From a virus: 64,000 nt of DNA. Both the position numbers and the translations under genes were made by a program. The stretch covers positions 1 to 64,000 of IMG/VR virus record IMGVR_UViG_3300044591_001745; one strand, given 5' to 3'. The notes beneath the pieces are model-generated. The model was not told the origin of the DNA, did not search any database, and saw nothing but the letters and a program-made list of their open reading frames with translations. Positions 4,375 through 54,594 of the stretch are shown in pieces (position 1 is the first letter of the stretch; every line of letters begins with the position of its first letter).

Positions 4375-4389
4375 TTCAGTACCTCCTTA

Positions 4390-18547: not shown

Positions 18548-18574
18548 TTTTTAGAATCCTATGCTGTTATCTAA

Positions 18575-18583
18575 TAATACCCC
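18575..18583 (-). promoter_or_regulatory. Putative late promoter motif GGGGTATTA
   Basis: Instance of the recurrent intergenic GG(T/G)GTA + AT-rich motif, upstream of 14213..18547. Confidence 0.45.
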
Positions 18584-18585
18584 AA

Positions 18586-21288: not shown

Positions 21289-21293
21289 TATAT

Positions 21294-22463: not shown

Positions 22464-22504
22464 TATAATATGGCCTATATTAAAAAATTTGTGCAACTAC
22501 AATT

Positions 22505-22514
22505 AGTATACCCC
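22505..22514 (-). promoter_or_regulatory. Putative late promoter motif GGGGTATACT
   Basis: Recurrent intergenic motif, immediately after the stop of 22516..24072. Confidence 0.45.
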
Positions 22515-22515
22515 A

Positions 22516-32221: not shown

Positions 32222-35200
32222 TCATTTTGGTTTAAAGTTGAAACTACCTTCTGACTGCTTATTCATATTCTCAAAGGCTCTATCTACTTCACCTCTAACA
32301 AGCTCCTTAACTTTTTCTTCCATATTATTGAAAGTAGCGGTTCCATTAATATTCACGTTTACCTCATGTTTTCCTGTAATGTTAATAATTGGTGGAACAT
32401 TAAGCTTGGATAAAGTTTCCGCAAATTGAGTGAACTTGGTGGTAAAATCTCCTAAAGCTGTTAAGGCGGTTTCATCCAGTGTAATATTGCCAATATTTAA
32501 TCCACCTAGAGCTTCTCCAAAAGCAGTAACGCTAGTTTCAAACTGTTTAATAGCGGTCAATGTAGCGCTATCAAAGCCCATACTATATGAACTAGATACA
32601 CCGCCAGAGGATCCACCACCTTTATTTTCTCCACCACCACTAAAATACTTGGGATTAATTACTCCTCCGCGACTAGCATAACTAACAATCTGACCAGTGG
32701 TATTATTTCCATTATTAATGGCTTCTAAAATTGGCAAGTATCTTTGAGTGGAGTCTCTATTGATAACAAATTCGCCGGGGGTTAACATGGCTGGAACAGT
32801 ATCTGTTCCTTTAGGAGACCAATTTACAGGAGCAGCGCCTCCATCAGCACGATAAATAAGCCCTCCCTTGGCTTTATTGACTGCATTTCTTGTTTCTTCT
32901 TCTGTGCGTGGAGCTTCTGATGGAGGTACCTCAGCTTGATTAGGAGCATTTTTTGCTGCCTGATTAGCTACGTCTTCTGCGGTTTGCGGTTTAGGCTGAG
33001 ACGCAGCCTGAGCTTCTTTTTCTTGAACAGCCTTTTCTCTCAATAATGCCTCAACAGTATTTGTAGTGCCAGCTTTTCTATTCTTATTATAATAAAATCC
33101 ATACAAAGTGGGTTGTGCATATGGCATAAGATTTTCATCGTATATTTCCTGTAATCCAACCATTCCTGGACCACCTTCGCCATCGACAGTTAGGCCAGAG
33201 AAATTAGTAAATGCTTTATTAGCTGGCTCATAATTCATCTTCATTTTATTCCATAATTCATTACCTTTCTCAGTAAATACTCTTGGTAATGCATCAGGAG
33301 ATAAATTATTATCGTAAAAATCTAAAACTTGTTGTGCGGTAGCTTTCATCTGATCGCGTTTTTCAAAATCTTCTGGTGCTGTCGGAGATACGCTACCAAC
33401 AAATTGATTAACAAGGCCAACGAAAGCATTTTTATCTTTTAATGCCCCTATAAATGTTTCAGCATTAACGTCTGTCGGTGGAGTGATTTTTGCTTGGGTA
33501 GCCATAGCCGTTAAGGAAGAGATCAAACCATTCACTGATGGAACTACAGCAGGTTCAAATAGCTGCTCTCCTTCGCCAGCAACTGGACGCATCAAAAGAT
33601 CATCTCTATCCGTTAAGAAATCTCTTAGTGATATTAATTGTGGAGAATATTCTTCCCACAAACCAGCCCACCCAGCTGTTCCCGGATCTTTACTTTGTGT
33701 CCACTTTCTTGCATAAGTATCTGCATTTTTCCATAAAATATTTCCCAAAGTTTCTCTATATTTAGGTTCATAAACTTTACTGTCGTCTAAAAATTGAGTT
33801 AATATATCGTCTATTGTTTCTGGAATCTGTATGTCTTCTGTTCCTGTTGCTGTAGCAACCTTCATCATCATCATGTCAGGATCTGCTGTTTTTCCAGCCA
33901 TAAACTCTGAAGCTTTTTTCTCTGATCCAAAAGCAGCGAAGTTAGATTGTAATAATGCCATTTGTTCAGAGCTTATTTTGGCTAAATTATTGCCTGTCAC
34001 TAATTGTTTAAAGCGTTGTGCTGTGCGTACTTGATTAGCAAATCCTAAGATATAATCAACAAATTTTGGATCCCTAACAACTTCTGGAACATTCCAAAAC
34101 TTTTTAACTAGCTCTTTGCCTGATCTTTGATCTGTTTCTTTTTCTTTGAGTAGATATTTTTCTAGATTACCAGATTTAGAAAATAACGTATAAAGTCTCG
34201 TGCTTGCTTGTCCAATAGATGTTCCTTCTGATATTGGTCGTTCAGCATCAGATGCTAGTTGACTAAAAAATCTGCCAGCGCTCATATATTGACCAAGCGC
34301 TCCTTCAGAAGCTAAAGTCTCAACTTTTTCTCCTTGATTTTTATCGTAAGCTTCCTGTTCCAATTGCAAAGCTTTTCCTTTAACCCATGAGATATAATCA
34401 ACGGCTGCCATTAGATCGTCTTGAGTGCTGATACTTCCCGGAGGAGCTACTCCATCATTAGAAGCAGCCTTAGCCCAATCGGCAGCACTAGATAATGAGC
34501 CCATAGGAATATTAATATTTTTAATCTTGCTCCAAACAGGAGCAGCTAGCATAGGAATTTGTTCAGACTTAAAGTGAATTAAACTGGCTTCTTTTTCCAT
34601 CTGGGCCTGTCTAGTCTTTCTGTCTGTCAAAGCTTTCCTAGCTACAATTCCTTGAACTAGTTCAATAATATTAGGAATTTTAGCTAAAATAGGATTCTTG
34701 GCATCTTCATAAACCGGATTAAGACCCGACAGGAAACTATCGGTATAGAACAAAGCATTTTGTCTTAATAAATATGCAGCAGCACTATCCTCAGCATCTG
34801 ACCCTTGAGCTTGATCTTGTCCAGGCTTGGCTTTTCTGCTGGTTCTAGCACCTCTGACATATTCAGCTGACTGCATAGCAGCCTCTGCCATAATAGGCTG
34901 ATATCCACCAGCTAAAGTCATGCCAAGAATACCCCAATCTGGAATATTAAAATTAGCCAAGGCCCATTCATTGACGGCAGCTTCCATTGCTGCTTCACTG
35001 CTATAATATGGCAATAATTTTTCTGCTCCTGGTCCCATAGATTGAAAAGGATTAATTCCTCCTTCTGCTTTATTGCGACCAATAATGTGGACACCTTTCA
35101 TTGGAGTGTCGGATGGCTCAAAAGGAGGTCCGGGTAAAAATTTAGTTTTGGTTTGACCATCTATATCTACCGTGGCAGGATCTAATAGAGGAATTTGTTC

Positions 35201-38200
35201 GAATGGTCTATATGAAAATTGAACTGGTACAGGAAATTTTGAATTAGGTAAATCTATAAGTTTATCAAATGTTGCCGCTGTCTTGACTTTTAATCCTATT
35301 TGAGAGGCCATTGCAGCTTCTTGTTGTGCTTGAACAGATTTTAGCATATCGTCTGGAACTATATCTATCGTACTCCAAGGAAGCGGATCATATTGATTAG
35401 AAGGTTTGCCTTCTTGATATATCTTAAATCCATTCTCTGCTGTATAGTCCCACATTTTCTTTTGCTCAATAGCATTTTTAATGGCTTCGTTCGTATCTTT
35501 TGCTGCTACAAGACTCTTCCACGATGGCCTCATTGCAGTACCATAAACTGTCAAATTACCTGAACTTTTACCAGTAGCTCCTTCTCCTGGCTTATCTGAT
35601 GATCCAGCAGACGAACTCCAACCAAATGAAGAACGAACACTATCTTTAATTTCTGATTGCTTAAAGTCGTACTTTAGTCTTGTTCCAGATTGTAAGGCTC
35701 CAAGAATCTTAGAATATCTGCCTTCTTTGGCTTTTGACGGGGTTTCTCTTGTCCAATGAGCAGAATTAAAATTATCTGGGGTCGTAGTTTCGGCCTTTAC
35801 TTCCTTAAGACTGTCGTAATAACTTTGCAAAGCATCTTTAACAACGGAAAAATCTTGAACATTAGTGTTTGCAGCAGAGTTATCAATTTTTACTGCTTCA
35901 GCTAAATATTGTTCTGTAATTGCGCTTTTCTTTGGATCATTTTCATCCAGAGTAGGATAGCCATCAGTTCTAAACTGTAATAAACCTCCTGCTGAATTTC
36001 TTTTTGGAAAAGCATCCTTAGGAACTTCTTTTCCTTGACTTAAATAAGCATACATATATTCTTTATCTTTAGACATTGCAGTTGGCCCAAAAGAATAAGT
36101 AGTGTATGCTCCGCTACCTGATGTAGATACTTGGGCTTCTGGTGGGTCGGTTCTTAGCTTCCATTCATCAGCCTTAATAAAAGAATCAACCCATTGTTTT
36201 AGTGCTTTTTCTTGAGCTTTGGCTTCTGTTAAAGATATATGATCTACACTACCTTCTCCATCAATCAATCTTAAGGCAGTATCCTTATCCCTAAACTGCA
36301 TAGGATAAGAAATCCCACTATCTACTGCTAGCTCTTGTAATTTTTGACCTATGCCTTTAACTTCTACGGGAGTAGCTCCATCGTATATAGCCTTGCCGGC
36401 TCCTACTACAGCGCCAGTTGCAGCTAGTCCCGGAACAGCATTTCTTGCTGCCGTCCTAACTCCTTGTTCTAAGGTCTCTCCTCCCATTCTAATCGCTGCT
36501 TTTTCGGATACTCTGGCAGTCATGCCTGTAGCAGCTGATGTTGCTTCAGCAGCAGCTTTAGCAGAAGACATTCCTAGTTTTTTCTTTATGGAGTTGGGAA
36601 TAAATCTCATAAGAACATCTACAGTGTTCCCGTTCAAGAATCCTGCCATCTTATCATATAGACCTGGGGCAAATTTTTGGAAAATACCAGGAATTAATTT
36701 ACCGCCAGCGGATGCTAATCTTTTAAAGCCAGGTACCCATTTTAATGCCCAGCCAAGAGCCTTTGTAACACCCTTTCCTACTACTCCAGCGCCAGGAATA
36801 GGAACTAAATTAAATACAGCGCTCAATCCTTCTAGGGCTGCTCCCAAAATATTTCCTTTAAATAGTTCTCTTACGGCGTCTATTCCGGATACAACAGCAC
36901 CCAAACCAGGAACAAATTTCATAGCCTCCCATATCCATCCTCCAACATTGCCTCCAATTCCCATAGGAGCACCATCAACTTCACCACTATTATTCGCTGC
37001 TGTTGTGGCAACAACCTGTCCTAACCTTCCTGCTGCTGCATTTTTTGCGGCAATACCGGCGGCGGCCCCGAGACCAGCCCCCTCTAATGTTTTATTTACT
37101 ATTTGCCTAGATAGATAAAAATCTGGCAATATTCCCATTTCTGCCTGATTACCCTTCATAGACCCTGTTCCTATAGTTCCAGCACCAAGAGCATTGGCTA
37201 CATCAGCAGAAGAACCATTAAAAGTAGGATATGAATAAGGCTTATAGAATTGCAAGCTACCTTTATCTGCATCTAGCCCAGCAATATTTTTGATAACATC
37301 ATTTCCAGAACCAAATTTAGAAAAATCATTCCATGTTGTATATAGCTCTCCTGGTTTACTATCTGTAAATCTATCTTTTTCTGGTTGAAGCATATCGCTC
37401 ACCCAACCACCCTCTGCTAAATATTTTACGGGTCCTCCTTTTGCGTATCCATTATTAATAGCTGTTAACAATGACTTATTCGACGATGCGGCTTCTTTGT
37501 TTACAACAAATTCTCCTGGCGTTAACATTGCCGGAACTGTGTCTGTTCCTTTTGGTTTGAATATAGATCCGCCAACAGCTTTATATGTAACTGTTCCTCC
37601 TCTAGCGAAAGGCATGGCTTCCCCGCCTCCTGCTGCGACATTAGTTACTTTGGTAACTCCATTTTGTAAATGGGTGTTGAGAGTGTTAATTCCCTGGCTG
37701 ATATCTTTTAGATTAGCATTTGCAGATGCTTGTTGTACGCCATTAAGCGCATTCTGGAAAGCTTGCTGAGAATTAGCTCCTATTTGTTGAGCAAGATTGC
37801 CATCCAACATAGCTAAATGCTCATTAGCTTTAGCTTGTAGTTCTGTTGCTTGTTTGTATTGATTGATGGCTTCTGCCATCTGGGGGTCGCCTTCTGGATT
37901 TCTTAATCCTTCTAATACCTTATTGAACATGGGACTCATTTCTGTCCCTGATTCTCTCATCATAGACTCTAGCATATTGGCTTTCAACTGATTTTGATTT
38001 TCTCCCAACATAGGAGCCAACATCTTAAATGCTTCTAATGTATCGCTTCTGTCTTGTGCAGCAGCAGAATCAGCGGCTTCCTGTGCTTCTTTCATACTGG
38101 CACCGCTTTGTAAAGCCTCGTTATAGGCTTCTTGCACTCTTACGGACTCCCACATATTATTGGTTTGGCCGTTCATGTTGCGTTCTAAACGATCAAAAGC

Positions 38201-41200
38201 ACCGCTTAACTTGGCTTGGTCCTTGGGAGATGAGGACACATATCTTTCTAGTATATTTAGTCCTGCTTCATTCTTAGCTCTTAGTTCTCCAATTTTATTT
38301 AGAGCTGCTTGAGCTACTTCTGTGCTTTCTGATAGTCCTTTAAGAGCAGCATAATTTTCCCTTAAAGACATAGTTGTAGATGCTAACTCTCTGTTAAATG
38401 CTACTATATCCTTTTGATTTCTTGGTCCTCCTTGGGACGCATTGTTCATTGACGCTTGTTGTCCTTGTCTTAATTGTTCTAATCGTCCTATATTATTAAA
38501 TATCGCTTCTGGGTCTGTTGTTCCAGCCTGACTCATAACTCCAGCCCTAGCGTCTCTCTTACTAGCGGTAAAAGATATAGTTTTTCCTAGAGCTTTTGCT
38601 AGATCTGTTTCTCCACGAGCGCGAATATCAGAAGCTCTTCTGAATTTCTCGTTAGAAGAAATCTGAGTATTCACCATTTCATTTGTGGCTTGAGCATAAC
38701 TATTAAGCGACTCTTGGTAAAATTCTAATGCTTTGACTGCTGTTTCTTGTGCTCTCTTAGTGGCTTGAATAGTCTTGCCAAGAGCCGATGACTCATTAAA
38801 CAGCTGCCTAAAGTCTTTTTTATCATCACTGCTGGTTCTTGACGAAGTGACGTCCGCTGCTACTTGACGAGATAAAGTTTGTTTTAGCGCAGCATCAATA
38901 TTTAATTTTCCAAGTTCATCTTCTATATTTTTACCTATACGAGCTTCTATTTTCCCGCTACTAGCTTTTGGATCTTGTTCTATTGTGCTATTAATTGTTG
39001 ATAGTATTGTTTCTTCCAATTTTGGACCAAATTCTAATAAGCCCTTCATATTAGCGGCTTGACCACCAAAAAATTGTGAACCTACATTTGCAGCAGCAGA
39101 TCTATCTGTTTGACTAGAGACATTCGGATTTTGCAGAATATTGAGTGCGTCTATCCTAGCTGCCCCTACCTTAGCATCTCCAGTCATAGATGCTTGCATC
39201 AAATCTGTAGCATCGGCTAATTTGTTTAAAGAATGTGTTACAGAATTAATGCTCTGCTCCATATTACTGAGCATTCTTTCCAAGCCATATAATAAACTAC
39301 TACTTTGTCTGTCTGCCTGTTCACTATTTCGTTGTCTAATAGCTTGAACTTCTTGTTGTCTAACAGCATTAGATGCTGTAAATTGTATTAGTTCTTGTTT
39401 ACGCGCTTCTCTGACTTGTCTAGATACACTCAAATCTGCATCTATCAACCTTAAGCTTTCTTCTACTTTAGCATTAGATCTAGCCAGTACTTCTGCTTGT
39501 TGAGCCCAGCCCGGATCCTTCATTATGTCTGAGGATGTTTCTCCAGCCTTAAATCTAGCGGAGTTTTGCTGTTCTATCATAGAGGCTACTTTTGCAAATT
39601 GCTCCGATGATTTAGCTGCATTTTGTGGTGCTAGTTCTCTGGTATATTGCTCTTGTGTGCGGCCCGTTACATCTAAAAGAGACCCAAAATAAGCCATACT
39701 GCCTTTTTGACTTAATATATCTGCTCTCTGAGATCGTCCTTCTTGGGAACCTCCACCAAGAGCTAGTGTTTCTCCAATTACATTAGATGTACTCCATTGA
39801 GGATTAGTTTTGCTAATATCTGCTAATGTCTTTGCAGCAGATGCGGCTCTACTTATTTCCATTCCAGCCGATTTTAACTGATTGGCATTCTCTACGGTAT
39901 TTTGATTATAAGAAGCCAATGCTTCTGATGCATTCTTCAAACTATTTTCTAGAATCTGTGTAGCTCTTTCTAATTTATTCCTACGCAAAGTATCTGTAAT
40001 TGCTATAAAAGCAGATGCTGCTGCGTTAAATGCTCCGACGACCAAAGCAGCAGGACCGGCCAAAGCAGATAGTGAACCAGTAATGCCACTTATCACTTTA
40101 GGTAGATTGCCCGCTAACTTACCTACCATGCCTCCTCCAGTATCAAGTCCGCCACCTATACGGCCAACAATGTTCTTTAAAAATCCAGGACTCATTCCGT
40201 CTGCAAAAGTAGATACTCTTCTACTGGCATCGATTAATGTTGAGGAGAAATTTGATAATGTTTTGGATGCGTCTTCAGAAGTACCTGCCTTTGCTATGAA
40301 TTCTAATCCTTTATTAAATCCATAGAATAATGCCTGAGTATTTCCTATGCTTGTAGACAATGATGATAGTGTACTACCAACTAAAGTAGTAGAGCCGACA
40401 AATTGACCCAAAGCACTAGTAGCAACAGCAGCCGCGCCACTATACAACAAAGACTGTTTTGTCATATTCTGTATAGCTACTACATTATCTTGTATAGATT
40501 TAGCATAATCAGTATTATCTGGAACAGTGGTCGATCCTCTTGCTGTAGACTGAGCTGCTGTTCTCATTTCTCCAGAGGATAGTACTGCCCCTCCTCTAAC
40601 AGAAGCCATGCGACTCCTAGCCTCATTAATTGCATCAGCCTGATCGGCAGTTGCTGATGTTAGTCTATTCTGAGCAGCAGCTTGCACAGCAGCAAATGCA
40701 GCGGCGTCTGCTCTTGCTTTTGCTTCGCTTGCTGTAGCTCCTGCTAATCTTTGTTCCTGATATGTTTGTAGTTTCGTTGCTTTGGCTGCTTCTTCTAGCT
40801 CCATCATATATCTTTGTATCGCTGCTTCTGCATCTCCAGCAGGAGGACTGCCCGGTGGACCTCCACCAGCAGGAGGACTAGGAGGTGATGGTGGAGAAGT
40901 TGGTGGTCCGCTAGGAGCAGGAGTTGGTGCGGTAGAGGTAGCTGCCGAGCCGATGATATCATCTTTTGTTATACCGCTGGTAATTGCTAAAAATGCATCT
41001 AGAGCAGCTTTATTTTTACCAAGACTTTCTGCCATTGCTTTGGCACCGATATCTACAAGCTCAAATGATGGAATATTGTTTGCCTTGCCTCCTCTTTGAC
41101 CTCCTCCAGTTACCTCATATCCAACCATTCTTTGAACCATTTGCAATACCAATTTAGGATCTTGCATAGGATTACCCAAACGATATTTATCAGAACTCTT

Positions 41201-44200
41201 ATCTGGATTTTCGTTCATATGCAACTGTTTGCCAATATCCCACGTTGCCCAACTTTCGCTTTGACCAGCGATACTAGGAGCTTGTCCAATTCCTGACATA
41301 GCAGTAGAGAACATATCTCTCATTTGAGAAACTAAGGCATCGACTTTGGTATTGTCTTGTTTTGTTAACTCTTCTGCATATTTTTGACCGGAAGGGCTGA
41401 TTGCGGTATCTGTTTGTCCGCTAACATCGCTATAATTCATGCGTTTGCGATAATATTCAGTATCTCTTACTGGTAAAGGCGGCAATGGAGGTGGAGTGAT
41501 AGTAGGAGGAGATACTGATATTGGCTGTGGAGAAGTACCAACAGCAGCTTTCATAGCGTCTGATGCTGATACTGGATTTCCTGCATTTCTGTTGGCTAGT
41601 CTTGCCTGTCTAGCAGTTAATGTGTCCTCTTGCATTCTTTGGAGATCTTGTGAAGAATATCCTTCTGATTTAGCTATAGATTGTTCTTGAGTAGCTACTC
41701 TGGATCTATTAATTTTATCTAATTCTACCACTACTCCTGTAGACATCTGTCTAAAAGCTTCTACTATATCTGGACCCAAAGAATCAGTTTGTTTTCTAAT
41801 GCTTGACATAGACCTTTTGACAGTGCTCATAGCGGCATTCCATGATGATGTGTCTAATAGGACACTAGCATCAGATAATGAACCGATAGTAACACCAAAA
41901 GCATCTTTTAATTCTTGCGGAAATGACGATATGATACTGTCTATTCTATTTTGTATTTGTGCTAATTCTTTAGCATTAATTGCAACAGTTTCTACTCTTT
42001 GTAATTCTCCACCATCAGCAAACTTTTGTATTCCTATAGCCCCGCCCTTATTGAAGCCCAATGCTTCAGTGGCTTTTTTCCTAATAACAAAACTTCCTAC
42101 TGGCAATCCTACTGGACCAAAAGAATCAGTATTTCCACTACCAGGAACTATACCAACGTCTCCACCACCAGCATATCTACCCATGCCATTTTTATCGGCA
42201 TGATTCATACGACGCAACCTACCGTATCCTATTTTCTTAGCTAGTTTTGGACCAATTACAGCTTCTCCGGGAGTCAACAAAGCTGGAACACTACCTCCTT
42301 CGGCAAATCCTCCGGTTTGTAGTCCTTGAGCTTGACGTTGAAAGAATTGCATGGCCATTGTTCTAGAGTCTTGTTTCTGGTTTGCTCTAGTAACAGATTT
42401 GGGATCATTAATTAAAGAGGGACTCTTAGTATATCCGCTTTGTAGTACCCATGCTAAGTCTGTTGGGGGTGGCCAAGTTTCTCTTCTACCATAAAGTTTA
42501 GGATCTATAAGCGCGTTATTTTTTGTCCAATCTTCAGGTTCTAATGGGACTTTTTTAACGTCTGATCTATTTTTGAAATAATATTCCCATACTTTTTTTG
42601 CATCTCCACTAACCATAGCCCTATCTGATGTAAGCATAGCTCCTTGTTCTGTTGCTGCTTCCATAACAGCATCATATAATTTAGGACCACCGCCTCCAGT
42701 AGCTTTAGACAATCCAACAGTATACAGATTGTTTTTGGCTTTTTTAGCCATAACAAATCCCGACACTGTATCATTTTTAACATATCCAGCATTTATTGTA
42801 GATCCATCAGATGTTAGAGATATGCGTGGATATTGTTTTTCTTCTTTACGAGCTGGCTGCTGATTATTTCCATCTCCTAATATTTCTATATTAGATGGCT
42901 TTAATGGTGATTGTCCAACATACTTTAAAACTAAACCGTATGGTTTTTGGAATAGTTTACTCTCGAATTCATTAACTAATGCAGGGTCTCCGGCTGTTAA
43001 TCTCTGCATTAATTTGCCAATAAGTTCGCCCTCTCTAACATTCCCGTCGGTACCACTATAAAGCGTTCTTCTCGCACCGCCTTGAACTGTATATTGTTGC
43101 CCGTCATCTCCGGTAAGCGTTTGTGATCCTTCTTGTACTCTTATGCCAGATGACATAATTCCTTTTTCTAGGTTCTTATCAACTTTACCCAATAGGCTAA
43201 TCGGAGCATCATCTTTCATGGATAGCGTTGGCTGTATTTTATCAAAATTTTCAGTCATCCATTTAATGATTAAAGACTTTTGCAATTCATAGTCTAGATC
43301 ATAATTTTCTGGTGTAAGAGCTTCATTGAATGTTAACACCATCGGTTTCCCTGTTGTGTCCCCAGAAACAACGGTTCCAAAACCGCCGCCAGCAACTCTC
43401 ATTTTGGCTTGAGTAACTGCCCTGTCTTTTTCTGTGTAAACATAAAATCCTGCTCCTTGCCCATAGCCAGTAGCAATATTGCTTAATGCTCCTTTTTCTT
43501 TGAAGCTATTAAGGACACTATCATTAGTTCCGGTATTACTACCATGAAATAAACTAACTATTCCACCACCGGCAAATCTGGCGATATTTGGATTTTCTAA
43601 AAAATATCTTGCAAACTCATTACGTGCTCTTTCAAAAGCACTGCCATCTAATGTTCTCTTTATTTCTGTAGGCAGATCGGGATCTAACCCGAAAAATTGT
43701 GCAGCGCGTCCAAGCCCATTTGGGAAGTCGATAGCTCTATTCGATTCAAGTTGATCGATGGGTGGAAGATTAGCTCCTAAAAGTGCCAGGGCTTTTTCTA
43801 TAACTGCGCCTTCTATATTGCCCTGACCCATTAATTCATCTAATTCTGGTTTGGCTTTCGGCTCAGTATATAAGAATCCTTTCTTTCCACTCTTAGATAC
43901 GGCATTTAAATTATCTAGACTATCATCTATTAATTTTTCTGTTTGCGCTAAATTGGCTGCCTTCGCTGCTGCTATATTGGTAGATGCTCCTGAGCTTACT
44001 CCTGTAATATCTGATTCTTTGTATGGTAGTCCAAAAGTTTGCAAAGTTTTTGCGAGTAAATCGGCAGTTGCTTGTGGTCTTGCGGTCAATATACGAGTTT
44101 GTCTAATAAAATTAGGATCTTCATCTATAAGTGTTTTAAGTTTTGCTCCTAATCTAGTTAATTTAGCTTTTTTAAGAGCTTCTGCTACAGCATCCCTATT

Positions 44201-47200
44201 AGAGTATTGGGGAATATTTGGTTTACCATTAGCATCTAAAATGTCCCCACCAGAAACCAAAGTCTCATCGAAATCAAAAACAAGAGAACCACCATCAAAA
44301 ATATCTGCATATTGCACATTCTCCGCTAATCTTATAGAAGATTCAGAAGTTTCTTGTTGCATTTGACGAACAGCATTAAGGTATTTACCTTTGAATCCCC
44401 TAACATATGCATAAATATTTTTTGGATCTTTATCTGTACCGATATTCCACTCAAAATTTTTATTGTAATCTAAAGCATTATTAGAATCAACTAGTCCTGC
44501 TACAGCAACTTTCGGCAGTCTAGATATTCTTTCTACTTCGGCAGCACTTTCAATATTCCCAGCAGATAGTGCCCTATCGATTACTTTTGCCGCTTCTTCT
44601 ATTCTCCTGCCCTGTTTGAGATTACTAACTCTTAGCAAGCTATCTAATTCTCTGTCTCCACCGCCTACTCCTAGTATTTTTTTAACTCCAGCTATTTTAC
44701 CAAGAGCTTCTAATTCTTGAATTATAGTATCTTGCAAGCTTTGACCTCTTTGTTGCGCTAGTTCTGCAACTCCTCCTATAGAAAATTTTTGTATTAGTCC
44801 TCCTAGATTAAATCCTGGAATACCGGCCGCTCTTTGTTTTTCTATCCATTGATAAAATTGTTTCTTTTGATCTTCTGCCCAAAAATAATCTAAGGTTCCT
44901 AACATTGCTTCATCTATAGAAGATCCAGAAGACTGTTCTTTAAAATAGGAACCAATAGATTTTTTATCTATTCTGTATCTTAATAATTTGCTAACTAAAT
45001 CCATATCATCTGTTGGTATAGATCTAAATTTAGCTTCTCCAATAGCGTCTATAGAATTATCTTTAAGTTTTCTAACAAGATCTATAGGATAGTCAGATTG
45101 GTTGCTGGCACTTTCCCATTTGCCAGATAATTTGGCTGCCAATACTTCTTCATATGCTTTACCCCATCGGCCTTCAGCGCTCATTAGTTTGCCAACAGAA
45201 GATTCCCCTGTAGCTGGAGGAGCCTTCCTTCTTCGATCTGATTGTCTAATTTGTCTTAATCTATCTCTATTTTCTGGACTAACATCAACGCCTTCATAGC
45301 TTTTATACTTACCACCACCCATTGAAGCCGAGGCGTTTGCTGTGTCCCATATTTTTTGAAAATCTTCTTTTTCTGTTAATTTTACCGTTCTTCTATTAAT
45401 TCTAATAGCAGCTTTGTCTGCTAATCTATCATTCGCTGATTTTTCTATATTGGATGCTGGGAACAATACTGAATTAATTGTATTAGATCCGGAGCGACCC
45501 AGTAATTCATCTATTGTAAAATATTCCGTTAGTCCACCGGCAGCAAATTTTTTAGCTTGTCCTTTATTTATTGCAACAAGATTACCCTTACCATAAGCCT
45601 GTACTGCTTTGCGATTAACAACAAATTCTCCGGGTTCAAGCATGGACGGAACTCTATCTCCTCTGCCAGACCCAGGAACACTACCGCCCTTAGCAAACTT
45701 TAATATACGACCACCACTGTTAGCGGTAACAGTTCCTCCACCGCCTCCGAAATCTGTACTAGCAATAGTATTATTCAGAGCAACAACCTCATTGGTCAGC
45801 TGAGCAATTGCGCTATTTCCTAAATTATCTATGGATGCTTGTAGTGGAGTTATAGCCCCTGCTAATGCACCCATAGTTGAGCCCAAATTATTTAGCGCTG
45901 TAGTATTAGCGTCTAAATACCTAGAATTGTCTGTAACGTCCGCCGCTGCCCTATTATTTCTAGCAGATGATGCCGCTCCTCCTCCTTGGTCTCCTGGTTT
46001 AACTTTTTGCAGACCACCGACGAATCCTCCAACAAAACTTGTTAAAGCCTTAGCTCCTTTAATAGCTCCGATAGTAGCAAGAATAGGGAGTAGTGGTCTA
46101 GCAACATCAGCAACTTTGATAAAAGTGTTTGCTAATGTTAGTCCTAAGCTTACTAAGGTCTGAAAACTATCGCTTTTGCCAATTTCTCTGATAAGGGCTA
46201 CAAATGACTCTCTGGTTTTACTAAATTGTACTGCTAACGATGCTTGTGCTTTTATGGCATCAGCGGCTAATGAATTTTGTCCTCTTTGAGCAACGGTCAA
46301 GGCTTGTTGGGCTGTGCCGAACTCCTGAATTAACGGCAGCACCTTGCCAATCTGTCTAAATCCACCAAGTTCTTCTACTATTCTGGAAAAGCTAACATCT
46401 CTAGGATCAAGCTTGCCTAGACCTTCACTTAATAATTGTACAGCCTTATACGCCCCTACGAATTTACCTTGAACATCTAATAAATTAACTCCATACTCTT
46501 TAAGAGCTTCGATAGTATCTTCTCTTTGAATACGAGTAAAAATTGTTCTTAAACCGGTAGCGATAGTTTCCGCACTTTCACGAGTTGTAGCACGAACGCT
46601 TGTGAATACCGCGATGAATTCATTTAATGCGTCTGTACCTTCGCTTACTCCTTTACTGGCAGCAGCAAACACACCACCGGTACGTTGAATAGCAGTAATA
46701 ATATCACTAGCTTCGACAGCAAATCCAGCAGCAACAGCATTTATAGAACCTAGGGCATTATCCAAGTCTTCTGTACTAATTTTAAACTGTCTCATCAAAG
46801 CAATACTTCCTTCGACAGTATTATTCAGATCATCGAACGATGGAGCTAGAGCTGTCAATGCTAATGCTCTCAACGCTTGGTCTGTTTCTCTTGCGCTCAA
46901 ACCAGCCTGAGCCAATGTGTCTGATATGCGAATTAAATCACTGGATGCAACTCCAAGCCCTGTTGATAATCCGGTTATGGTATCTGTAATTCTATTTAAT
47001 TCATTATATGATTCGCCTGTAATTTGAGTTAATCTGACTAATTGTCTATCAAACTCTATAAATTCGGATGTAGCCTTGCTTACAGCATTATAAAGTCCAT
47101 AAATTACTGATGTAGCAGCATTAAACGCAGCAAATCTACGAACAGCCAGAGCAGATTGGCGACCAAACTCTTCCATTTCGTCTTTGGCTTCTACAGTATT

Positions 47201-47551
47201 TTTTCTTACTCTAGCTAATTGTCTTGATGTCTGTTCGGCAGAGCTTACAATTCTCTCCATAGAGTTATTTGAACCGCCTAAAGCATTACTTAATCCATTG
47301 AGAGCAGCAACTAAACCAGTGATATTATTTGTCGTTCTTGCAGAAGCGGTGGCTGTTATTTCAAGCTCTCTATTAAGTCTTCCCAGGGCTGTGGCATTTC
47401 CTAGAATAGACCTTTCTGCCGCTCTATCTATTTTAAGTTTAACATTAGCATCAATTGAACCTATTTCTCTTCTAATGGCTGCGGCAACCTGTTTAAGATT
47501 ACCTGGTCCTCTTAGATTAAGTTCAGCAGTAAGGTTGAAGGCTTTGGCCAT
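32222..47551 (-). CDS. Tape measure protein (5109 aa) with repeated GG/PGEFV modules and embedded enzymatic cargo domains
   Basis: N-terminal TP901-family (PhageMin_Tail-like) core (EFDRQLVRL...LAQAG...TRESAETIATGLRTIFTRI). Long helical Ala/Gln-rich tracts and hydrophobic segments. Follows tube and chaperone genes. DTVPAMLTPGEFV motifs typical of TMP C-terminal regions. Confidence 0.92.
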   Translation of the reverse strand: MAKAFNLTAELNLRGPGNLKQVAAAIRREIGSIDANVKLKIDRAAERSILGNATALGRLNRELEITATASARTTNNITGLVAALNGLSNALGGSNNSMERIVSSAEQTSRQLARVRKNTVEAKDEMEEFGRQSALAVRRFAAFNAATSVIYGLYNAVSKATSEFIEFDRQLVRLTQITGESYNELNRITDTITGLSTGLGVASSDLIRISDTLAQAGLSARETDQALRALALTALAPSFDDLNNTVEGSIALMRQFKISTEDLDNALGSINAVAAGFAVEASDIITAIQRTGGVFAAASKGVSEGTDALNEFIAVFTSVRATTRESAETIATGLRTIFTRIQREDTIEALKEYGVNLLDVQGKFVGAYKAVQLLSEGLGKLDPRDVSFSRIVEELGGFRQIGKVLPLIQEFGTAQQALTVAQRGQNSLAADAIKAQASLAVQFSKTRESFVALIREIGKSDSFQTLVSLGLTLANTFIKVADVARPLLPILATIGAIKGAKALTSFVGGFVGGLQKVKPGDQGGGAASSARNNRAAADVTDNSRYLDANTTALNNLGSTMGALAGAITPLQASIDNLGNSAIAQLTNEVVALNNTIASTDFGGGGGTVTANSGGRILKFAKGGSVPGSGRGDRVPSMLEPGEFVVNRKAVQAYGKGNLVAINKGQAKKFAAGGLTEYFTIDELLGRSGSNTINSVLFPASNIEKSANDRLADKAAIRINRRTVKLTEKEDFQKIWDTANASASMGGGKYKSYEGVDVSPENRDRLRQIRQSDRRRKAPPATGESSVGKLMSAEGRWGKAYEEVLAAKLSGKWESASNQSDYPIDLVRKLKDNSIDAIGEAKFRSIPTDDMDLVSKLLRYRIDKKSIGSYFKEQSSGSSIDEAMLGTLDYFWAEDQKKQFYQWIEKQRAAGIPGFNLGGLIQKFSIGGVAELAQQRGQSLQDTIIQELEALGKIAGVKKILGVGGGDRELDSLLRVSNLKQGRRIEEAAKVIDRALSAGNIESAAEVERISRLPKVAVAGLVDSNNALDYNKNFEWNIGTDKDPKNIYAYVRGFKGKYLNAVRQMQQETSESSIRLAENVQYADIFDGGSLVFDFDETLVSGGDILDANGKPNIPQYSNRDAVAEALKKAKLTRLGAKLKTLIDEDPNFIRQTRILTARPQATADLLAKTLQTFGLPYKESDITGVSSGASTNIAAAKAANLAQTEKLIDDSLDNLNAVSKSGKKGFLYTEPKAKPELDELMGQGNIEGAVIEKALALLGANLPPIDQLESNRAIDFPNGLGRAAQFFGLDPDLPTEIKRTLDGSAFERARNEFARYFLENPNIARFAGGGIVSLFHGSNTGTNDSVLNSFKEKGALSNIATGYGQGAGFYVYTEKDRAVTQAKMRVAGGGFGTVVSGDTTGKPMVLTFNEALTPENYDLDYELQKSLIIKWMTENFDKIQPTLSMKDDAPISLLGKVDKNLEKGIMSSGIRVQEGSQTLTGDDGQQYTVQGGARRTLYSGTDGNVREGELIGKLMQRLTAGDPALVNEFESKLFQKPYGLVLKYVGQSPLKPSNIEILGDGNNQQPARKEEKQYPRISLTSDGSTINAGYVKNDTVSGFVMAKKAKNNLYTVGLSKATGGGGPKLYDAVMEAATEQGAMLTSDRAMVSGDAKKVWEYYFKNRSDVKKVPLEPEDWTKNNALIDPKLYGRRETWPPPTDLAWVLQSGYTKSPSLINDPKSVTRANQKQDSRTMAMQFFQRQAQGLQTGGFAEGGSVPALLTPGEAVIGPKLAKKIGYGRLRRMNHADKNGMGRYAGGGDVGIVPGSGNTDSFGPVGLPVGSFVIRKKATEALGFNKGGAIGIQKFADGGELQRVETVAINAKELAQIQNRIDSIISSFPQELKDAFGVTIGSLSDASVLLDTSSWNAAMSTVKRSMSSIRKQTDSLGPDIVEAFRQMSTGVVVELDKINRSRVATQEQSIAKSEGYSSQDLQRMQEDTLTARQARLANRNAGNPVSASDAMKAAVGTSPQPISVSPPTITPPPLPPLPVRDTEYYRKRMNYSDVSGQTDTAISPSGQKYAEELTKQDNTKVDALVSQMRDMFSTAMSGIGQAPSIAGQSESWATWDIGKQLHMNENPDKSSDKYRLGNPMQDPKLVLQMVQRMVGYEVTGGGQRGGKANNIPSFELVDIGAKAMAESLGKNKAALDAFLAITSGITKDDIIGSAATSTAPTPAPSGPPTSPPSPPSPPAGGGPPGSPPAGDAEAAIQRYMMELEEAAKATKLQTYQEQRLAGATASEAKARADAAAFAAVQAAAQNRLTSATADQADAINEARSRMASVRGGAVLSSGEMRTAAQSTARGSTTVPDNTDYAKSIQDNVVAIQNMTKQSLLYSGAAAVATSALGQFVGSTTLVGSTLSSLSTSIGNTQALFYGFNKGLEFIAKAGTSEDASKTLSNFSSTLIDASRRVSTFADGMSPGFLKNIVGRIGGGLDTGGGMVGKLAGNLPKVISGITGSLSALAGPAALVVGAFNAAASAFIAITDTLRRNKLERATQILENSLKNASEALASYNQNTVENANQLKSAGMEISRAASAAKTLADISKTNPQWSTSNVIGETLALGGGSQEGRSQRADILSQKGSMAYFGSLLDVTGRTQEQYTRELAPQNAAKSSEQFAKVASMIEQQNSARFKAGETSSDIMKDPGWAQQAEVLARSNAKVEESLRLIDADLSVSRQVREARKQELIQFTASNAVRQQEVQAIRQRNSEQADRQSSSLLYGLERMLSNMEQSINSVTHSLNKLADATDLMQASMTGDAKVGAARIDALNILQNPNVSSQTDRSAAANVGSQFFGGQAANMKGLLEFGPKLEETILSTINSTIEQDPKASSGKIEARIGKNIEDELGKLNIDAALKQTLSRQVAADVTSSRTSSDDKKDFRQLFNESSALGKTIQATKRAQETAVKALEFYQESLNSYAQATNEMVNTQISSNEKFRRASDIRARGETDLAKALGKTISFTASKRDARAGVMSQAGTTDPEAIFNNIGRLEQLRQGQQASMNNASQGGPRNQKDIVAFNRELASTTMSLRENYAALKGLSESTEVAQAALNKIGELRAKNEAGLNILERYVSSSPKDQAKLSGAFDRLERNMNGQTNNMWESVRVQEAYNEALQSGASMKEAQEAADSAAAQDRSDTLEAFKMLAPMLGENQNQLKANMLESMMRESGTEMSPMFNKVLEGLRNPEGDPQMAEAINQYKQATELQAKANEHLAMLDGNLAQQIGANSQQAFQNALNGVQQASANANLKDISQGINTLNTHLQNGVTKVTNVAAGGGEAMPFARGGTVTYKAVGGSIFKPKGTDTVPAMLTPGEFVVNKEAASSNKSLLTAINNGYAKGGPVKYLAEGGWVSDMLQPEKDRFTDSKPGELYTTWNDFSKFGSGNDVIKNIAGLDADKGSLQFYKPYSYPTFNGSSADVANALGAGTIGTGSMKGNQAEMGILPDFYLSRQIVNKTLEGAGLGAAAGIAAKNAAAGRLGQVVATTAANNSGEVDGAPMGIGGNVGGWIWEAMKFVPGLGAVVSGIDAVRELFKGNILGAALEGLSAVFNLVPIPGAGVVGKGVTKALGWALKWVPGFKRLASAGGKLIPGIFQKFAPGLYDKMAGFLNGNTVDVLMRFIPNSIKKKLGMSSAKAAAEATSAATGMTARVSEKAAIRMGGETLEQGVRTAARNAVPGLAATGAVVGAGKAIYDGATPVEVKGIGQKLQELAVDSGISYPMQFRDKDTALRLIDGEGSVDHISLTEAKAQEKALKQWVDSFIKADEWKLRTDPPEAQVSTSGSGAYTTYSFGPTAMSKDKEYMYAYLSQGKEVPKDAFPKRNSAGGLLQFRTDGYPTLDENDPKKSAITEQYLAEAVKIDNSAANTNVQDFSVVKDALQSYYDSLKEVKAETTTPDNFNSAHWTRETPSKAKEGRYSKILGALQSGTRLKYDFKQSEIKDSVRSSFGWSSSAGSSDKPGEGATGKSSGNLTVYGTAMRPSWKSLVAAKDTNEAIKNAIEQKKMWDYTAENGFKIYQEGKPSNQYDPLPWSTIDIVPDDMLKSVQAQQEAAMASQIGLKVKTAATFDKLIDLPNSKFPVPVQFSYRPFEQIPLLDPATVDIDGQTKTKFLPGPPFEPSDTPMKGVHIIGRNKAEGGINPFQSMGPGAEKLLPYYSSEAAMEAAVNEWALANFNIPDWGILGMTLAGGYQPIMAEAAMQSAEYVRGARTSRKAKPGQDQAQGSDAEDSAAAYLLRQNALFYTDSFLSGLNPVYEDAKNPILAKIPNIIELVQGIVARKALTDRKTRQAQMEKEASLIHFKSEQIPMLAAPVWSKIKNINIPMGSLSSAADWAKAASNDGVAPPGSISTQDDLMAAVDYISWVKGKALQLEQEAYDKNQGEKVETLASEGALGQYMSAGRFFSQLASDAERPISEGTSIGQASTRLYTLFSKSGNLEKYLLKEKETDQRSGKELVKKFWNVPEVVRDPKFVDYILGFANQVRTAQRFKQLVTGNNLAKISSEQMALLQSNFAAFGSEKKASEFMAGKTADPDMMMMKVATATGTEDIQIPETIDDILTQFLDDSKVYEPKYRETLGNILWKNADTYARKWTQSKDPGTAGWAGLWEEYSPQLISLRDFLTDRDDLLMRPVAGEGEQLFEPAVVPSVNGLISSLTAMATQAKITPPTDVNAETFIGALKDKNAFVGLVNQFVGSVSPTAPEDFEKRDQMKATAQQVLDFYDNNLSPDALPRVFTEKGNELWNKMKMNYEPANKAFTNFSGLTVDGEGGPGMVGLQEIYDENLMPYAQPTLYGFYYNKNRKAGTTNTVEALLREKAVQEKEAQAASQPKPQTAEDVANQAAKNAPNQAEVPPSEAPRTEEETRNAVNKAKGGLIYRADGGAAPVNWSPKGTDTVPAMLTPGEFVINRDSTQRYLPILEAINNGNNTTGQIVSYASRGGVINPKYFSGGGENKGGGSSGGVSSSYSMGFDSATLTAIKQFETSVTAFGEALGGLNIGNITLDETALTALGDFTTKFTQFAETLSKLNVPPIINITGKHEVNVNINGTATFNNMEEKVKELVRGEVDRAFENMNKQSEGSFNFKPK

Positions 47552-47642: not shown

Positions 47643-48563
47643 TCAAGAGTTGGGAGCAGTCTGTGGATCTGCAACGGTAGTTGTAGTTTCTGAAACCACA
47701 GGGGTTTCTTCGACTGCTGGTGTTGGAGGCACTGATTGTTCTTTTGTTTCATCTTTTTTATCTTCATCTAGTACAATAGGATTTCCATCATCATCCAAAA
47801 ACGGTTGTGTTTCAACTAAATATTCTCCATCTTTATCAACCCTATTACCAAACTTATCCACAAAATTTCCTTGCTCATCAACGTACCTACCATTTTCATC
47901 GACCAGCCTACCATCAGCATCTGTTAATTTTCCTTCTTTATTAATGTAACGTAATTTGTCATCAATGAATTTATACTTTTTCAAGAATTTATTTTCTGGC
48001 AAATTCAGTTCATAATCATTATCTAAACCATATAACATAGAGGCCAAATGTTGTGCTCCAACAATTGCGACCTCTTCATTAGACCTATTTAGATAGTCCT
48101 CCATACTGCTGAAATATGGCTGTTTCTCGCTATTATTATACACCAAGCATACTGAGACCAGATAATTAAATCTGGCATTATCAGCCTGGCCTTCTGCGCT
48201 ATGATTATCTAAAGACGTTCTTACTGCGATAAGAGAACGAATTTCATCTCTATCTCTTTTCATTTGAATAGCTATAGATCTGGCTTCTTTTACTGAAATA
48301 CCGCCTTTTGCTAGCTTTCTTTCAGAATCTAGTATATCCTGTTGCAGCTTATTGAACTTGATCTGTTTGTCTTGGTTCCAAAGGCCTTGTTCTTCTAATA
48401 AGTCATCCATTTTAGCTCTTACTACACACTTAGATTTAATGGCGTCTGTGAAAGCCTGATTATAAATCTTTTGAGCTTCTCTCTGGTCGTGTATGGTGGG
48501 TGTTTTCACCATGAAATCCACATCTTTACCGTCAATCTTAATCTTAAAAGTCTTAGCCTTCAT
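47643..48563 (-). CDS. Tail assembly chaperone-like protein (306 aa) with C-terminal VDxxG repeats
   Basis: Lies between tube and TMP. Helical. SD AGGAG. 7-aa repeats DADGRLV/DENGRYV/DEQGNFV/DKFGNRV/DKDGEYL. Acidic tail. Confidence 0.65.
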   Translation of the reverse strand: MKAKTFKIKIDGKDVDFMVKTPTIHDQREAQKIYNQAFTDAIKSKCVVRAKMDDLLEEQGLWNQDKQIKFNKLQQDILDSERKLAKGGISVKEARSIAIQMKRDRDEIRSLIAVRTSLDNHSAEGQADNARFNYLVSVCLVYNNSEKQPYFSSMEDYLNRSNEEVAIVGAQHLASMLYGLDNDYELNLPENKFLKKYKFIDDKLRYINKEGKLTDADGRLVDENGRYVDEQGNFVDKFGNRVDKDGEYLVETQPFLDDDGNPIVLDEDKKDETKEQSVPPTPAVEETPVVSETTTTVADPQTAPNS

Positions 48564-48870
48564 AGTCTTCTCCTGTTTCTGGATAGTTTGGTTTTACGTA
48601 GAATTTGTAATTATATCTGTATTTTGATCTAATAAATTTGGTTATTTCTGAAATAGCCGAACGCATCTGATGATTACCATTATTTAATATAAGCATCCTG
48701 GTGCGTTCCCACAAGTCTCTAAAATCTAATTCTTTTTCTGTTAATTCATCTTCGTTTTTTGTATGTCCCCATAAATGACCAAAAGCATCTTCAAATTTAG
48801 CTAATGATCCTATCATGGTGGTTTGGAATCTTTTTTCTATATTATAATAGATTTCATTTTCATGGTTCAT
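48553..48870 (-). CDS. Hypothetical helical protein in the tail chaperone region (105 aa)
   Basis: SD AGGA. Tight coupling to neighbours. Confidence 0.75.
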   Translation of the reverse strand: MNHENEIYYNIEKRFQTTMIGSLAKFEDAFGHLWGHTKNEDELTEKELDFRDLWERTRMLILNNGNHQMRSAISEITKFIRSKYRYNYKFYVKPNYPETGEDYEG

Positions 48871-53649: not shown

Positions 53650-54594
53650 TTAGCAATAATATGAATTTTCGGCTATTTTGTTGTATCTTTTCCAAAATCC
53701 ATTATATGATTTATGTTTCCAGTTAATAAGTAAATCATTAAAATTAGTTTTACAATATATACCACTGACTAGTATATTAGTGTCTAAATAGCATCTATTA
53801 TTATAACAGCATATTAAATTATAGTGTTTTTGTTGTTCTGTATTCAAAATACTTATAGTATCGGTATTGGTTCCATTCACTATATGTTTTGCAGACAATC
53901 CTACTATGTATCCGAACACTCTTTCTAAGGAGTGCTCATACGTTGGTCCGAATCTATCAGAAGCTTTTCCAGATATTAATAAAGCATATAAATTATCTAT
54001 AATCTTATCATTAAAATATTGCTGAAACAATTCTGTACGGGACCAAAAGATACTACCAGCAATGAATGTTAGATCTGTTCTCTGTGATTGATATTGATCT
54101 AGTCCTAGAGTGTCTTGTAGAATTTCTTGAATTAGTAATTGATTAAAACCCTCTTTATCTCTATTTAGCATTAATCCAGTATTTCCTATCATTCCAATAT
54201 TTTTATTTGAATCTATCATTTCTAGATTAGATAAAAAAATATCTTTATTACCTATTAATGAATGTACTAATAAAATTCTCCAATCAATATTTTTATGCTC
54301 TCCCCATAAGGATTGTTTAGAGTGCAATTTAATAAAATATGGATATTCAGAACTGTCAATATTTTTAAGTTGTAATAAGAATGGTCCGATATCTGAACCC
54401 TTATTAGGAAGTATAGTCAGGTCATAGAAAAAATTTTTTTCTAATTTGAATCTGACAGATTCTTCTTTTTTAGTGATGTGATCGCATATTGCAACGCACA
54501 ATTTTATGTAGGAACTGATGGGCTTTAAAAGAGAAATATATTCATCTAATAATGAATCATCATACAAATACAACAATACTAATACTTTTGTCAT
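53650..54594 (-). CDS. Rhamnan synthesis F (RgpF)-like glycosyltransferase (314 aa)
   Basis: Motif order NKGSDIGPFL, KLHSKQS, WRxxLxxxLIG, FIAGSIFW, HSLERVFG matches the RgpF family (NxGRDxxPF, KxHxKKS, FxAGxMFW, HAxER). Confidence 0.8.
   Translation of the reverse strand: MTKVLVLLYLYDDSLLDEYISLLKPISSYIKLCVAICDHITKKEESVRFKLEKNFFYDLTILPNKGSDIGPFLLQLKNIDSSEYPYFIKLHSKQSLWGEHKNIDWRILLVHSLIGNKDIFLSNLEMIDSNKNIGMIGNTGLMLNRDKEGFNQLLIQEILQDTLGLDQYQSQRTDLTFIAGSIFWSRTELFQQYFNDKIIDNLYALLISGKASDRFGPTYEHSLERVFGYIVGLSAKHIVNGTNTDTISILNTEQQKHYNLICCYNNRCYLDTNILVSGIYCKTNFNDLLINWKHKSYNGFWKRYNKIAENSYYC

Follow-up and report, generated by a model that had tools for sequence, protein, structure and literature searches.

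The first 64,000 nucleotides of the IMG/VR virus record IMGVR_UViG_3300044591_001745, referred to here as the window, contain a gene for a giant phage tape measure protein (TMP) of 5,109 amino acids (aa). Sequence comparisons firmly indicate that this TMP is built from cassettes, some of them enzyme-like, and that the conserved glycine-glycine (GG) joints at which the cassettes meet are exchange points. The best overall explanation, given a probability of about 0.62, is that of a cassette-carrying TMP that would deliver its cargo and may be cut beside some of the modules in which joints occur. The full record has 85,200 bp with linear ends and a CheckV completeness of 54%.

By homology, the open reading frame (ORF) in question is a TMP of the PhageMin_Tail / TP901 type, as a first-pass annotation of the window had proposed. 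PF10145 (PhageMin_Tail) matches aa 190-384 with an E value of 1.1e-23 (84.6 bits against a cut-off of 33.2), and eight of the nine PHROGs families matched by aa 1-615 are TMPs (best E 3.3e-25). Ten overlapping segments of the protein gave nothing else significant against Pfam, only two sub-threshold chance matches. A tblastn search of 50,697 phage records returned 40 records, which are distant TMPs only, all below 60% identity and mostly from SPbeta-like Bacillus phages. Closer relatives are found among giant proteins. A length-matched protein search identified 113 relatives of 2,876 to 7,724 aa, a HMMER scan with the cargo region gave 776 matches, and relatives were confirmed in 449 of 469 candidate stretches of IMG/VR. 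The N-terminal core has 53-83% identity in 80 IMG/VR loci. The C-terminal tip segment has 26-40% identity in relatives, and its common ending is present in 18 of the 19 loci, of these 80, whose TMP ends within the locus. On alignment, the parts of the family are a conserved N-terminal core, long segments of helical or hydrophobic character, a tip that is conserved at the C-terminus, and variable cassettes between modules 1 and 2.

The motif [FY]AxGG is present eight times in the TMP and the looser [FYK][ASNL]xGG 16 times, against means of 0.28 (maximum 3) and 1.81 (maximum 8), respectively, in 1,000 residue shuffles. The 'about 20' GG motifs counted in the first-pass annotation are reached only if the degenerate copies NSGG, QTGG, LAEGG and ILGDG are included. 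Fourteen of the 16 looser matches lie inside six sites, which agree in position with those seen before (Table 1: M1, the bare pair, the single joint, M2a with M2b, M3, and M4 with its joints), and the other two are at aa 1616 and aa 4161. No [FY]AxGG is found in the 12 other reading frames of at least 600 aa in the record.

At several of these sites the joints enclose a module of about 60 aa, consisting of a [FY]AxGG joint, a D...PGEFV core and a second [FY]AxGG joint. Five segments of the TMP align with the layout of a GG pair, VPGSGxxD-TVPAMLTPGEFV-INxxA...L..IN, and a second GG pair. Four cores read PGE[FA]V (aa 640, 1761, 3345 and 4925) and the fifth reads PVGSFV. A hidden Markov model (HMM) of the module copies likewise recovers five modules, the number of cores counted earlier, at the positions given in Table 1, the match to M4 itself covering aa 4895-4963. 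When all six frames of the complete 85.2-kb record are scanned with this HMM, the TMP frame alone matches (i-E 4e-13 to 2e-23). Among 46 aligned module copies, G13, G14, D23, E33 and N53 are invariant. Both acidic residues, Asp and Glu, are present in M1, M3 and M4, and are split between M2a and M2b. The third bare joint of the TMP (aa 1557-1561) is, on comparison with its relatives, a decayed joint.

The module is old and specific to TMPs. TMP families of PHROGs match M1, M3 and M4 at profile positions near the C-terminus, M1 being matched by 12 of them. A tblastn search with M3 found 126 phage records; among the 40 matches listed, 38 are on an annotated TMP and two are unannotated. Records of Gordonia phages are matched at two places each. 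The gpH protein of phage lambda (translation of NC_001416) carries a single module, at aa 732-782, with FATGG and YATGG on its flanks (HMM i-E 2.4e-8), just as the first-pass annotation had stated. Pairwise z scores against lambda gpH are 6.0-8.3 for M1, M2a and M3, and 2.4 for M4. The lambda module is outside both Pfam domains of gpH (TMP_2 at 54-256 and Tape_meas_lam_C at 627-701). One module is also present in gp46 of Pseudomonas phage JBD30, at aa 1015-1084, a region that overlaps the hook at aa 1022-1066 predicted by AlphaFold2-multimer in the published account, as far as its available text goes (PMC11445458).

In the length-matched set the HMM finds 606 module copies in 114 of 114 proteins, with two to nine in each. 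A scan of large-phage TMPs had been suggested as a check; at least one copy is present in every one of the 196 proteins of at least 2,000 aa. Module number rises with protein length (Spearman 0.70, n=187), and the distance from the last module to the C-terminus, with its median of 160 aa, is similar to that in lambda. The family as a whole has 908 copies, of which 676 are single and the rest form 116 tandem pairs. Both Asp and Glu are kept in 658 of the 676 single modules. In the tandem pairs one half has the Glu and has lost the Asp loop, and the other has the Asp, with Ser replacing the Glu. The first half has the Glu only in 97 pairs and the second half the Asp only in 101, the reverse order being found in 14 and 12. 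Each unit, single or double, therefore retains one Asp and one Glu. Because tandem modules split the two residues between their halves, this suggests that Asp and Glu act together and could be supplied by neighbouring modules. Two modules are also present at approximately aa 986-1110 of the TMP of Nodularia phage vB_NpeS-2AV2, a cultured Baltic cyanophage (positions 12983-23197, 3,404 aa), more than 2,000 aa from the C-terminus. This phage is a possible experimental model for internal modules.

Every cassette boundary carries an [FY]AxGG joint, and it is at these joints that cassettes are exchanged among phages, judging from where homology begins and ends. Compared with its relatives, the TMP of the window (P0001) loses homology at about aa 670, 925, 1335, 1561 and 1745. 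A breakpoint is present at q922-938 in 12 of the 14 relatives listed and at q1332-1335 in eight of these 14 (nine within q1320-1346), with another at q1561, the site of the degenerate ILGDG joint. The segment 1336-1560 is cleanly absent from P0004, P0005, P0008 and P0009, the alignment with P0004 passing from s2172 to s2175. Large non-enzymatic segments are exchanged too, the whole of S5 being replaced between modules in P0014.

The same is seen across the family when the stretches from first to second module of 168 proteins are compared with one another by all-against-all BLAST. Among the 414 breakpoints with at least 40 high-scoring pairs, 49% are within 10 aa of [FY]xxGG, where the null expectation is 6% and the maximum of 100 randomisations 9%, the counts being drawn from related sequences and not from independent events. 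For these breakpoints, 75% are within 10 aa of any GG (null 19%). Of all 1,352 breakpoint clusters, 25% are near [FY]xxGG, against 6% in the null. Seen from the joints, a breakpoint is no more than 15 aa away for 469 of the 606 internal ones. Cutting the proteins at their joints yields 821 segments in 146 clusters (72 of them singletons), arranged in 151 orders in the 168 proteins.

The domain resembling ADP-ribosyltransferases (ART-like) gives a second view of the joints. In IMG/VR, 14 copies are embedded in giant ORFs and 14 are stand-alone ORFs of 229-436 aa. An xxGG is found immediately upstream of all 14 embedded copies and an [FY]AxGG immediately downstream of 13 of them; the 14 stand-alone ORFs are all without a joint. 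Since embedded copies have joints and free genes do not, the joints belong to the TMP chassis rather than to the domains. Precise swapping of variable domains between GG motifs had been set in advance as a test, and both the breakpoints and the ART-like copies show it family-wide. Around the joints, F/Y is enriched four-fold at position -3 of the GG and V/I four-fold two residues after it. In 81 TMP genes (that of the window and those of the 80 loci), the Ala of [FY]AxGG joints is encoded by GCT in 74% of 346 cases and in 50% elsewhere (p 9e-17), and the Gly codons at the joints are near background (p=0.03). The Ala-codon bias may reflect conservation at the nucleotide level at exchange points.

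Several cassettes appear to be autonomous, enzyme-like domains: they have homologues that stand alone, and their catalytic motifs do not vary. The commonest is the S2 cluster, present in 136 of 168 proteins. Its middle part is well supported as HAD phosphatase-like on motif grounds, with all four HAD motifs (DxDxT, T/S, K and DD) present: D168, D170, T172, T231, K272, D284 and D285 are invariant in 17 sequences, and again in 13. A HAD profile of S2 reaches two small proteins, P0245 and P0246, at E values of 2-3e-4. These two match LNS2_PITM1-3 at E 2e-6 and 5e-6, P0245 clearing the cut-off (28.3 against 27.7 bits) and P0246 reaching 27.0; their matches to HAD and HAD_2 are weaker (E 8e-4 to 5e-3, below the cut-offs). 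At the end of S2 the pattern E..D..ExK is kept in 61 sequences, and S1 keeps E..PD..ExK in eight aligned relatives with no Pfam or PDB match. The PD-(D/E)xK-like reading of S1 and of the S2 end is at motif level only. The HAD segment of the first-pass annotation has thus held up through its invariant motifs, and its nuclease-like segments are a motif pattern with no family or fold match.

The ART-like segment, S3a, begins six residues after FAGGG, that is just after a GG motif as noted previously. H17 (HGS), Y51 (GFY) and E103 (DYE) are invariant in 17 sequences. The H-Y-[EDQ] signature of ADP-ribosyltransferases consists of Hx[ST], Y and E/D/Q in that order, according to the available text of PMC7955679. 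Among 43 members of S3a, DUF3990 is matched in six (best E 0.017) and PARP in one (E 0.055), all below the cut-offs. DUF3990 belongs to the Pfam ART clan (PMC7955679) and has been found as an Rhs toxin tip (PMC4524185), again as far as the available texts go. S3a of this TMP has no ART-clan Pfam match, and searches for PF13151 and PF18760 in its own record produced no candidates. A protein homologue search with the S3a profile found two proteins, neither with a Pfam label. S3a is ADP-ribosyltransferase-like on its signature and weak Pfam matches only: the H-Y-E part of the earlier assignment is borne out, and a significant ART-clan match is absent.

Two further assignments were not borne out. 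A GNAT domain had been proposed for S3b; its 14 members gave no GNAT family at E<=5 and chance-level PDB profile matches, so that neither Pfam nor PDB supports it. Similarly, the PT-TG-like segment proposed within S5 has no Pfam match to PT-TG at E<=0.1. S4 has no family match in Pfam or PHROGs. PDB sequence and profile searches with the cargo (aa 600-1760) and with the S3a, S2, S3b and HAD profiles found nothing significant. In the relatives' cargo regions, ADPrib_exo_Tox is present in seven of 46 (best E 7e-10) and a nucleotidyltransferase-associated family in two of 46. Of ten cassette representatives, one is ADPrib_exo_Tox-like, one is cytidylyltransferase-like and the remainder are dark. 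Pfam labels on giant relatives also include SNase and EF-hand.

Table 1. Parts of the TMP gene and their positions in the window
Feature	Residues (aa)	Window position	Strand	Basis or remark
Whole TMP gene	1-5109	32222..47551	minus	Single uninterrupted frame, 5,109 aa + stop
N-terminal TMP core	1-610	45722..47551	minus	PF10145, 8 TMP PHROGs
Module M1	612-673	45533..45718	minus	HMM; GG joint, D...PGEFV core, FAAGG joint
Cassette S1, PD-(D/E)xK-like	676-912	44816..45526	minus	Motif level only; homology block q3-255
Bare GG pair FNLGG...FSIGG	914-927	44771..44812	minus	No core
Cassette S2	928-1325	43577..44770	minus	Helical part, HAD phosphatase-like (~aa 1075-1238), PD-(D/E)xK-like end
Single joint FAGGG	1326-1330	43562..43576	minus	Bare, no core
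Cassette S3a, H-Y-E ADP-ribosyltransferase-like	1331-1560	42872..43561	minus	Signature
Degenerate joint ILGDG	1557-1561	42869..42883	minus	Intact GG pair in P0006 at the corresponding position
Cassette S3b, function unassigned	1562-1744	42320..42868	minus	Stand-alone homologues
Tandem module M2a + M2b	1745-1797 (M2a), 1800-1848 (M2b)	42008..42319	minus	HMM; M2a with E kept and D lost, M2b with D kept and E lost
Segment S4, Ala/Ser/Gln-rich	1850-3305	37637..42004	minus	Conserved in close relatives; hydrophobic stretch aa 2486-2522
Module M3	3317-3382	37406..37603	minus	HMM
Segment S5, Ala/Ser/Gln-rich	3385-4890	32882..37399	minus	Composition; hydrophobic stretch aa 3567-3591
Module M4 + GG joints	4895-4974	32630..32869	minus	HMM
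C-terminal tip segment	4975-5109	32225..32629	minus	Conserved ending in relatives

TMPs are expelled into the host. By analogy, it is likely that the cargo of this TMP is delivered on ejection. Like other TMPs, the protein would probably fill the tail lumen and be expelled C-terminus first at infection. With expulsion in that direction, the cassettes would arrive just ahead of the DNA, and there is a good chance that the HAD-like, nuclease-like and ART-like cassettes would enter the envelope or cytoplasm as enzymes made in advance for takeover or anti-defence. The odds are about even that the core of the module acts as a small hook by which the chain is docked within the tip or tube, with Asp and Glu acting together. 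Somewhat more tentatively, a cut beside at least some of the full modules, on the model of lambda, might free the cargo block of aa 674-1744 (~118 kDa) as one polyvalent protein.

A further view, which is unlikely to be correct, would make the gpH-type module a self-contained docking-and-release unit, in which Asp and Glu would form a composite site that cuts beside the GG joint once docked in the tip; in tandem modules this site would be supplied in trans. Were docking and release combined in this way, the TMP would be a cartridge belt that delivers, C-terminus first, membrane-inserting segments, exchangeable enzymes and then the DNA. It would amount to a programmable protein-injection system, and would also explain the mechanism of gpH maturation in lambda.

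What is known of TMP cleavage comes from other phages. Lambda gpH is cut into gpH* and a gpHC fragment of ~14 kDa 'from the glycine-rich region', according to the available text of PMC12617516, which names the TMPs of lambda and T5 as the only ones shown to be cut. By mass, the 14-kDa fragment would start at about aa 712-726, just upstream of FATGG at 733-737, and a cut after the first joint (G737) would yield 12.2 kDa. Because the mass places the start there, the lambda cut is near the module, not demonstrably at it. In T5, cleavage of pb2 after R1127 splits off an enzymatic C-terminal piece, according to the available text of PMC10038345; once ejection has occurred, the 43 residues that precede the cut are anchored in the hub. 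AEGG directly follows the published cut in pb2 (aa 1127/1128), in a region otherwise without significant likeness to the module. Elsewhere among phages, the appendage protein of phi29 self-cleaves with an Asp/Glu pair.

Several observations weigh against the proposed explanation. Pfam shows no peptidase family in the TMP or in 29 other ORFs of the record; as the record is only 54% complete, absence of a protease is not established. The TMP is split into separate genes at a module in none of the 19 loci, out of 80, in which its end is inside the locus. The exact cut site of lambda gpH and the protease are given as unknown in the available text of PMC12617516. T5 pb2, tried as a module-bearing relative, has no HMM hit, five of six pairwise scores at shuffle level and one of six with z>3. 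The gp96 protein of Thermus phage P23-45 is of full size in virions and has been proposed to function in the fused state (PMC10770324), so cargo can work uncut; as a candidate family member it was rejected, with no module and no [FY]AxGG. The cargo segments of this particular TMP have no Pfam or PDB sequence match of their own, and their 'globular enzyme' reading is drawn from sequence patterns. The split of Asp and Glu in tandem pairs may derive from few ancestral events, and the breakpoint counts share the same lack of independence noted above. To call the module 'the processing module', as in the first-pass annotation, exceeds what is established.

A serious alternative, standing a little under even odds, is that the chain has no internal cut, or loses only a lambda-like C-terminal piece. 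The enzymes would then be tethered at the entry pore, as proposed for gp96, and the joints would be hinges or docking hooks as well as recombination splice points. The scanned ORFs without a protease and the 19 unsplit TMP genes are in keeping with it. So is the growth of module number with length, which is expected of periodic structural elements, and the bias of the joint Ala codon (GCT 74% against 50%) hints at nucleotide-level conservation that would be useful for recombination. However, gp96 lacks the module and therefore says nothing about it, while lambda gpH, which does have the module, is cut nearby. Tethering would also hinder enzymes with different targets, an argument made for polyvalent proteins in the available text of PMC5512222.

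It is less probable, indeed rather unlikely, that every GG site including the bare pairs is a site of protease or self-cleavage, so that the polyprotein would give about six to eight free proteins, with single enzymes of 21-44 kDa. Conserved toxin-boundary motifs of Rhs and CdiA have a double role, in release and in exchange, and among large DNA viruses there are some whose structural polyproteins are cleaved after Gly-Gly. Here the joints bound every cassette, F/Y is enriched four-fold at -3 of the GG, the lambda cut maps near its module, and the computed joint-to-joint fragments (27.5, 43.6, 24.9 and 21.2 kDa) resemble normal enzymes. Against this, the conserved Asp and Glu are in full modules only and the bare pairs have no core. 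No protease was found in the TMP or the 29 other ORFs, and the joint is under constraint on either side, the V/I enrichment after the GG being as much in keeping with a structural strand-turn as with a cleavage site.

It is more doubtful still that the inserts are not effectors at all and serve as tail-length spacers, lumen fill or envelope-crossing helpers, the enzyme-like motifs being relics. TMP length normally sets tail length. Most cassette families are functionally unrecognisable, no Pfam family is found in the cargo of this TMP, and only two are found at E<=0.001 across 46 cargo regions. Yet no variation is seen in the catalytic residues of 13-17 diverged sequences, a sign of selection for activity; other phages have these domains as free genes; and the rapid combinatorial turnover of cassettes resembles conflict systems, not rulers. 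An assembly or gene-calling artefact, in the form of a chimeric or read-through ORF, has the unusual size alone in its favour and is of negligible probability, given the uninterrupted frame, 113 similar-sized relatives from independent samples, the 80 IMG/VR loci, and the conserved C-terminal tip and order of parts.

The reading of the TMP as a carrier of exchangeable cargo, cut beside some modules, can be set against the closest known systems. Lambda gpH shares one copy of the module, with a hydrophobic and Gly-rich stretch before it and a short tip-binding C-terminus after it, and its cut, placed at ~aa 712-726 from the mass of the fragment, is near the module. It differs in having 853 aa, one module and no cargo, and in an N-terminal core of TMP_2 rather than PhageMin_Tail. 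JBD30 gp46 also has one module; in the available text of PMC11445458 its authors describe the hook as a pair of helices with a beta-hairpin, and offer a cut at 1066 as speculation. That protein has 1,158 aa and no cargo, and both hook and cut are predictions. P23-45 gp96 is a giant TMP (5,002 aa) of a phage with an extremely long tail, and carries a working virion RNA polymerase into the host (PMC10770324). It demonstrates that fusion to a giant TMP leaves an enzyme able to work once ejected (PMC10770324), but has one N-terminal enzyme instead of a swappable array, and is without the module. T5 pb2, which may be grouped with other TMPs that have cell-wall hydrolase domains, carries an enzymatic part that is cut off and stays in the tip; the difference is that pb2 has a single fixed wall-degrading domain, not exchangeable enzymes of intracellular type, and no detectable module.

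The polyvalent proteins of Iyer et al. (2017) are similar in that a single giant protein, presumed to be injected along with the DNA, brings together many enzyme domains of unrelated kinds (ART, GNAT, nucleases), and their release into separate units has been postulated, according to the available text of PMC5512222. Several unrelated enzyme domains are likewise seen here, as HAD-like, ART-like and nuclease-like cassettes, and the relatives' cassettes add ADPrib_exo_Tox, SNase and nucleotidyltransferase-like domains. Polyvalent proteins differ in being packaged in the head or delivered by conjugation, and in the available text their processing is ascribed to an embedded zincin-like peptidase (PMC5512222), whereas this TMP has no Pfam peptidase match that would indicate one. 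The phrase 'tape measure' has no occurrence in the text of that paper (PMC5512222). The Sle1-type TMP-related effectors of actinobacterial contractile injection systems also have a TMP-derived chassis with exchangeable functional domains, loaded in a tail-like tube (PMC13277306). They differ in belonging to a bacterial nanomachine and in having a single C-terminal functional domain (PMC13277306).

Fusions of a single enzyme to a TMP (T5 pb2, P23-45 gp96) and TMP-derived effectors of injection systems have therefore already been published. Literature searches found no description of a swappable TMP cassette array or of a repeated module. Beyond these, the TMP is here a chassis with a slot for changing enzyme-like cassettes, spliced at a conserved joint. 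The tail lumen would join the head as a route by which takeover or anti-defence proteins, made in advance, are delivered. Cassette families that are still uncharacterised can be mined in their hundreds (146 clusters in 168 proteins), and the invariant Asp, Glu and GG residues give a handle on how and where lambda gpH is cut.

The phage itself is uncultured, aquatic and long-tailed. Sample names refer to lakes and sea water. Matches in genome collections are eight contigs of metagenome-assembled genomes, with labels from six different lineages. Since these labels are inconsistent, the contigs are probably binned phage DNA, and no host is assigned.

The TMP gene is surrounded by a run of very large ORFs on the same strand. 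One neighbour has a tail-fibre PHROG and two have RCC1 propellers. The latter two are downstream, at window positions 10758-14213 and 14213-18547 (minus), and encode proteins of 1,151 and 1,444 aa with RCC1-repeat beta-propellers (E 4e-62 and 1e-97), one of them also with an Ig-like domain; they are probably host-binding tail parts. Directly downstream of the TMP is a 2,488-aa protein (24737-32203, minus) in which three antifreeze-type beta-roll-like stretches (E 2e-5, below the cut-off) are all that was matched. Directly upstream are ORFs of 105 and 306 aa (47643-48870, minus) with an 11-base overlap, as is often seen in tail-chaperone pairs, and with no family match. Further along the record, at 63138-68399 and partly past the window, two Laminin_G_3 lectin-like proteins are adjacent to two proteins with Mtd_N, the major tropism determinant (Mtd) N-terminal domain. 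In other phages Mtd is the target of diversity-generating retroelements. Sugar-metabolism genes are present at window positions 53650-54594 and at record positions 77332-78324 and 80772-82535; they encode an RgpF-like rhamnan synthesis protein (E 2e-14), a GDP-mannose 4,6-dehydratase (E 8e-114) and a GlmS-like amidotransferase with SIS domains.

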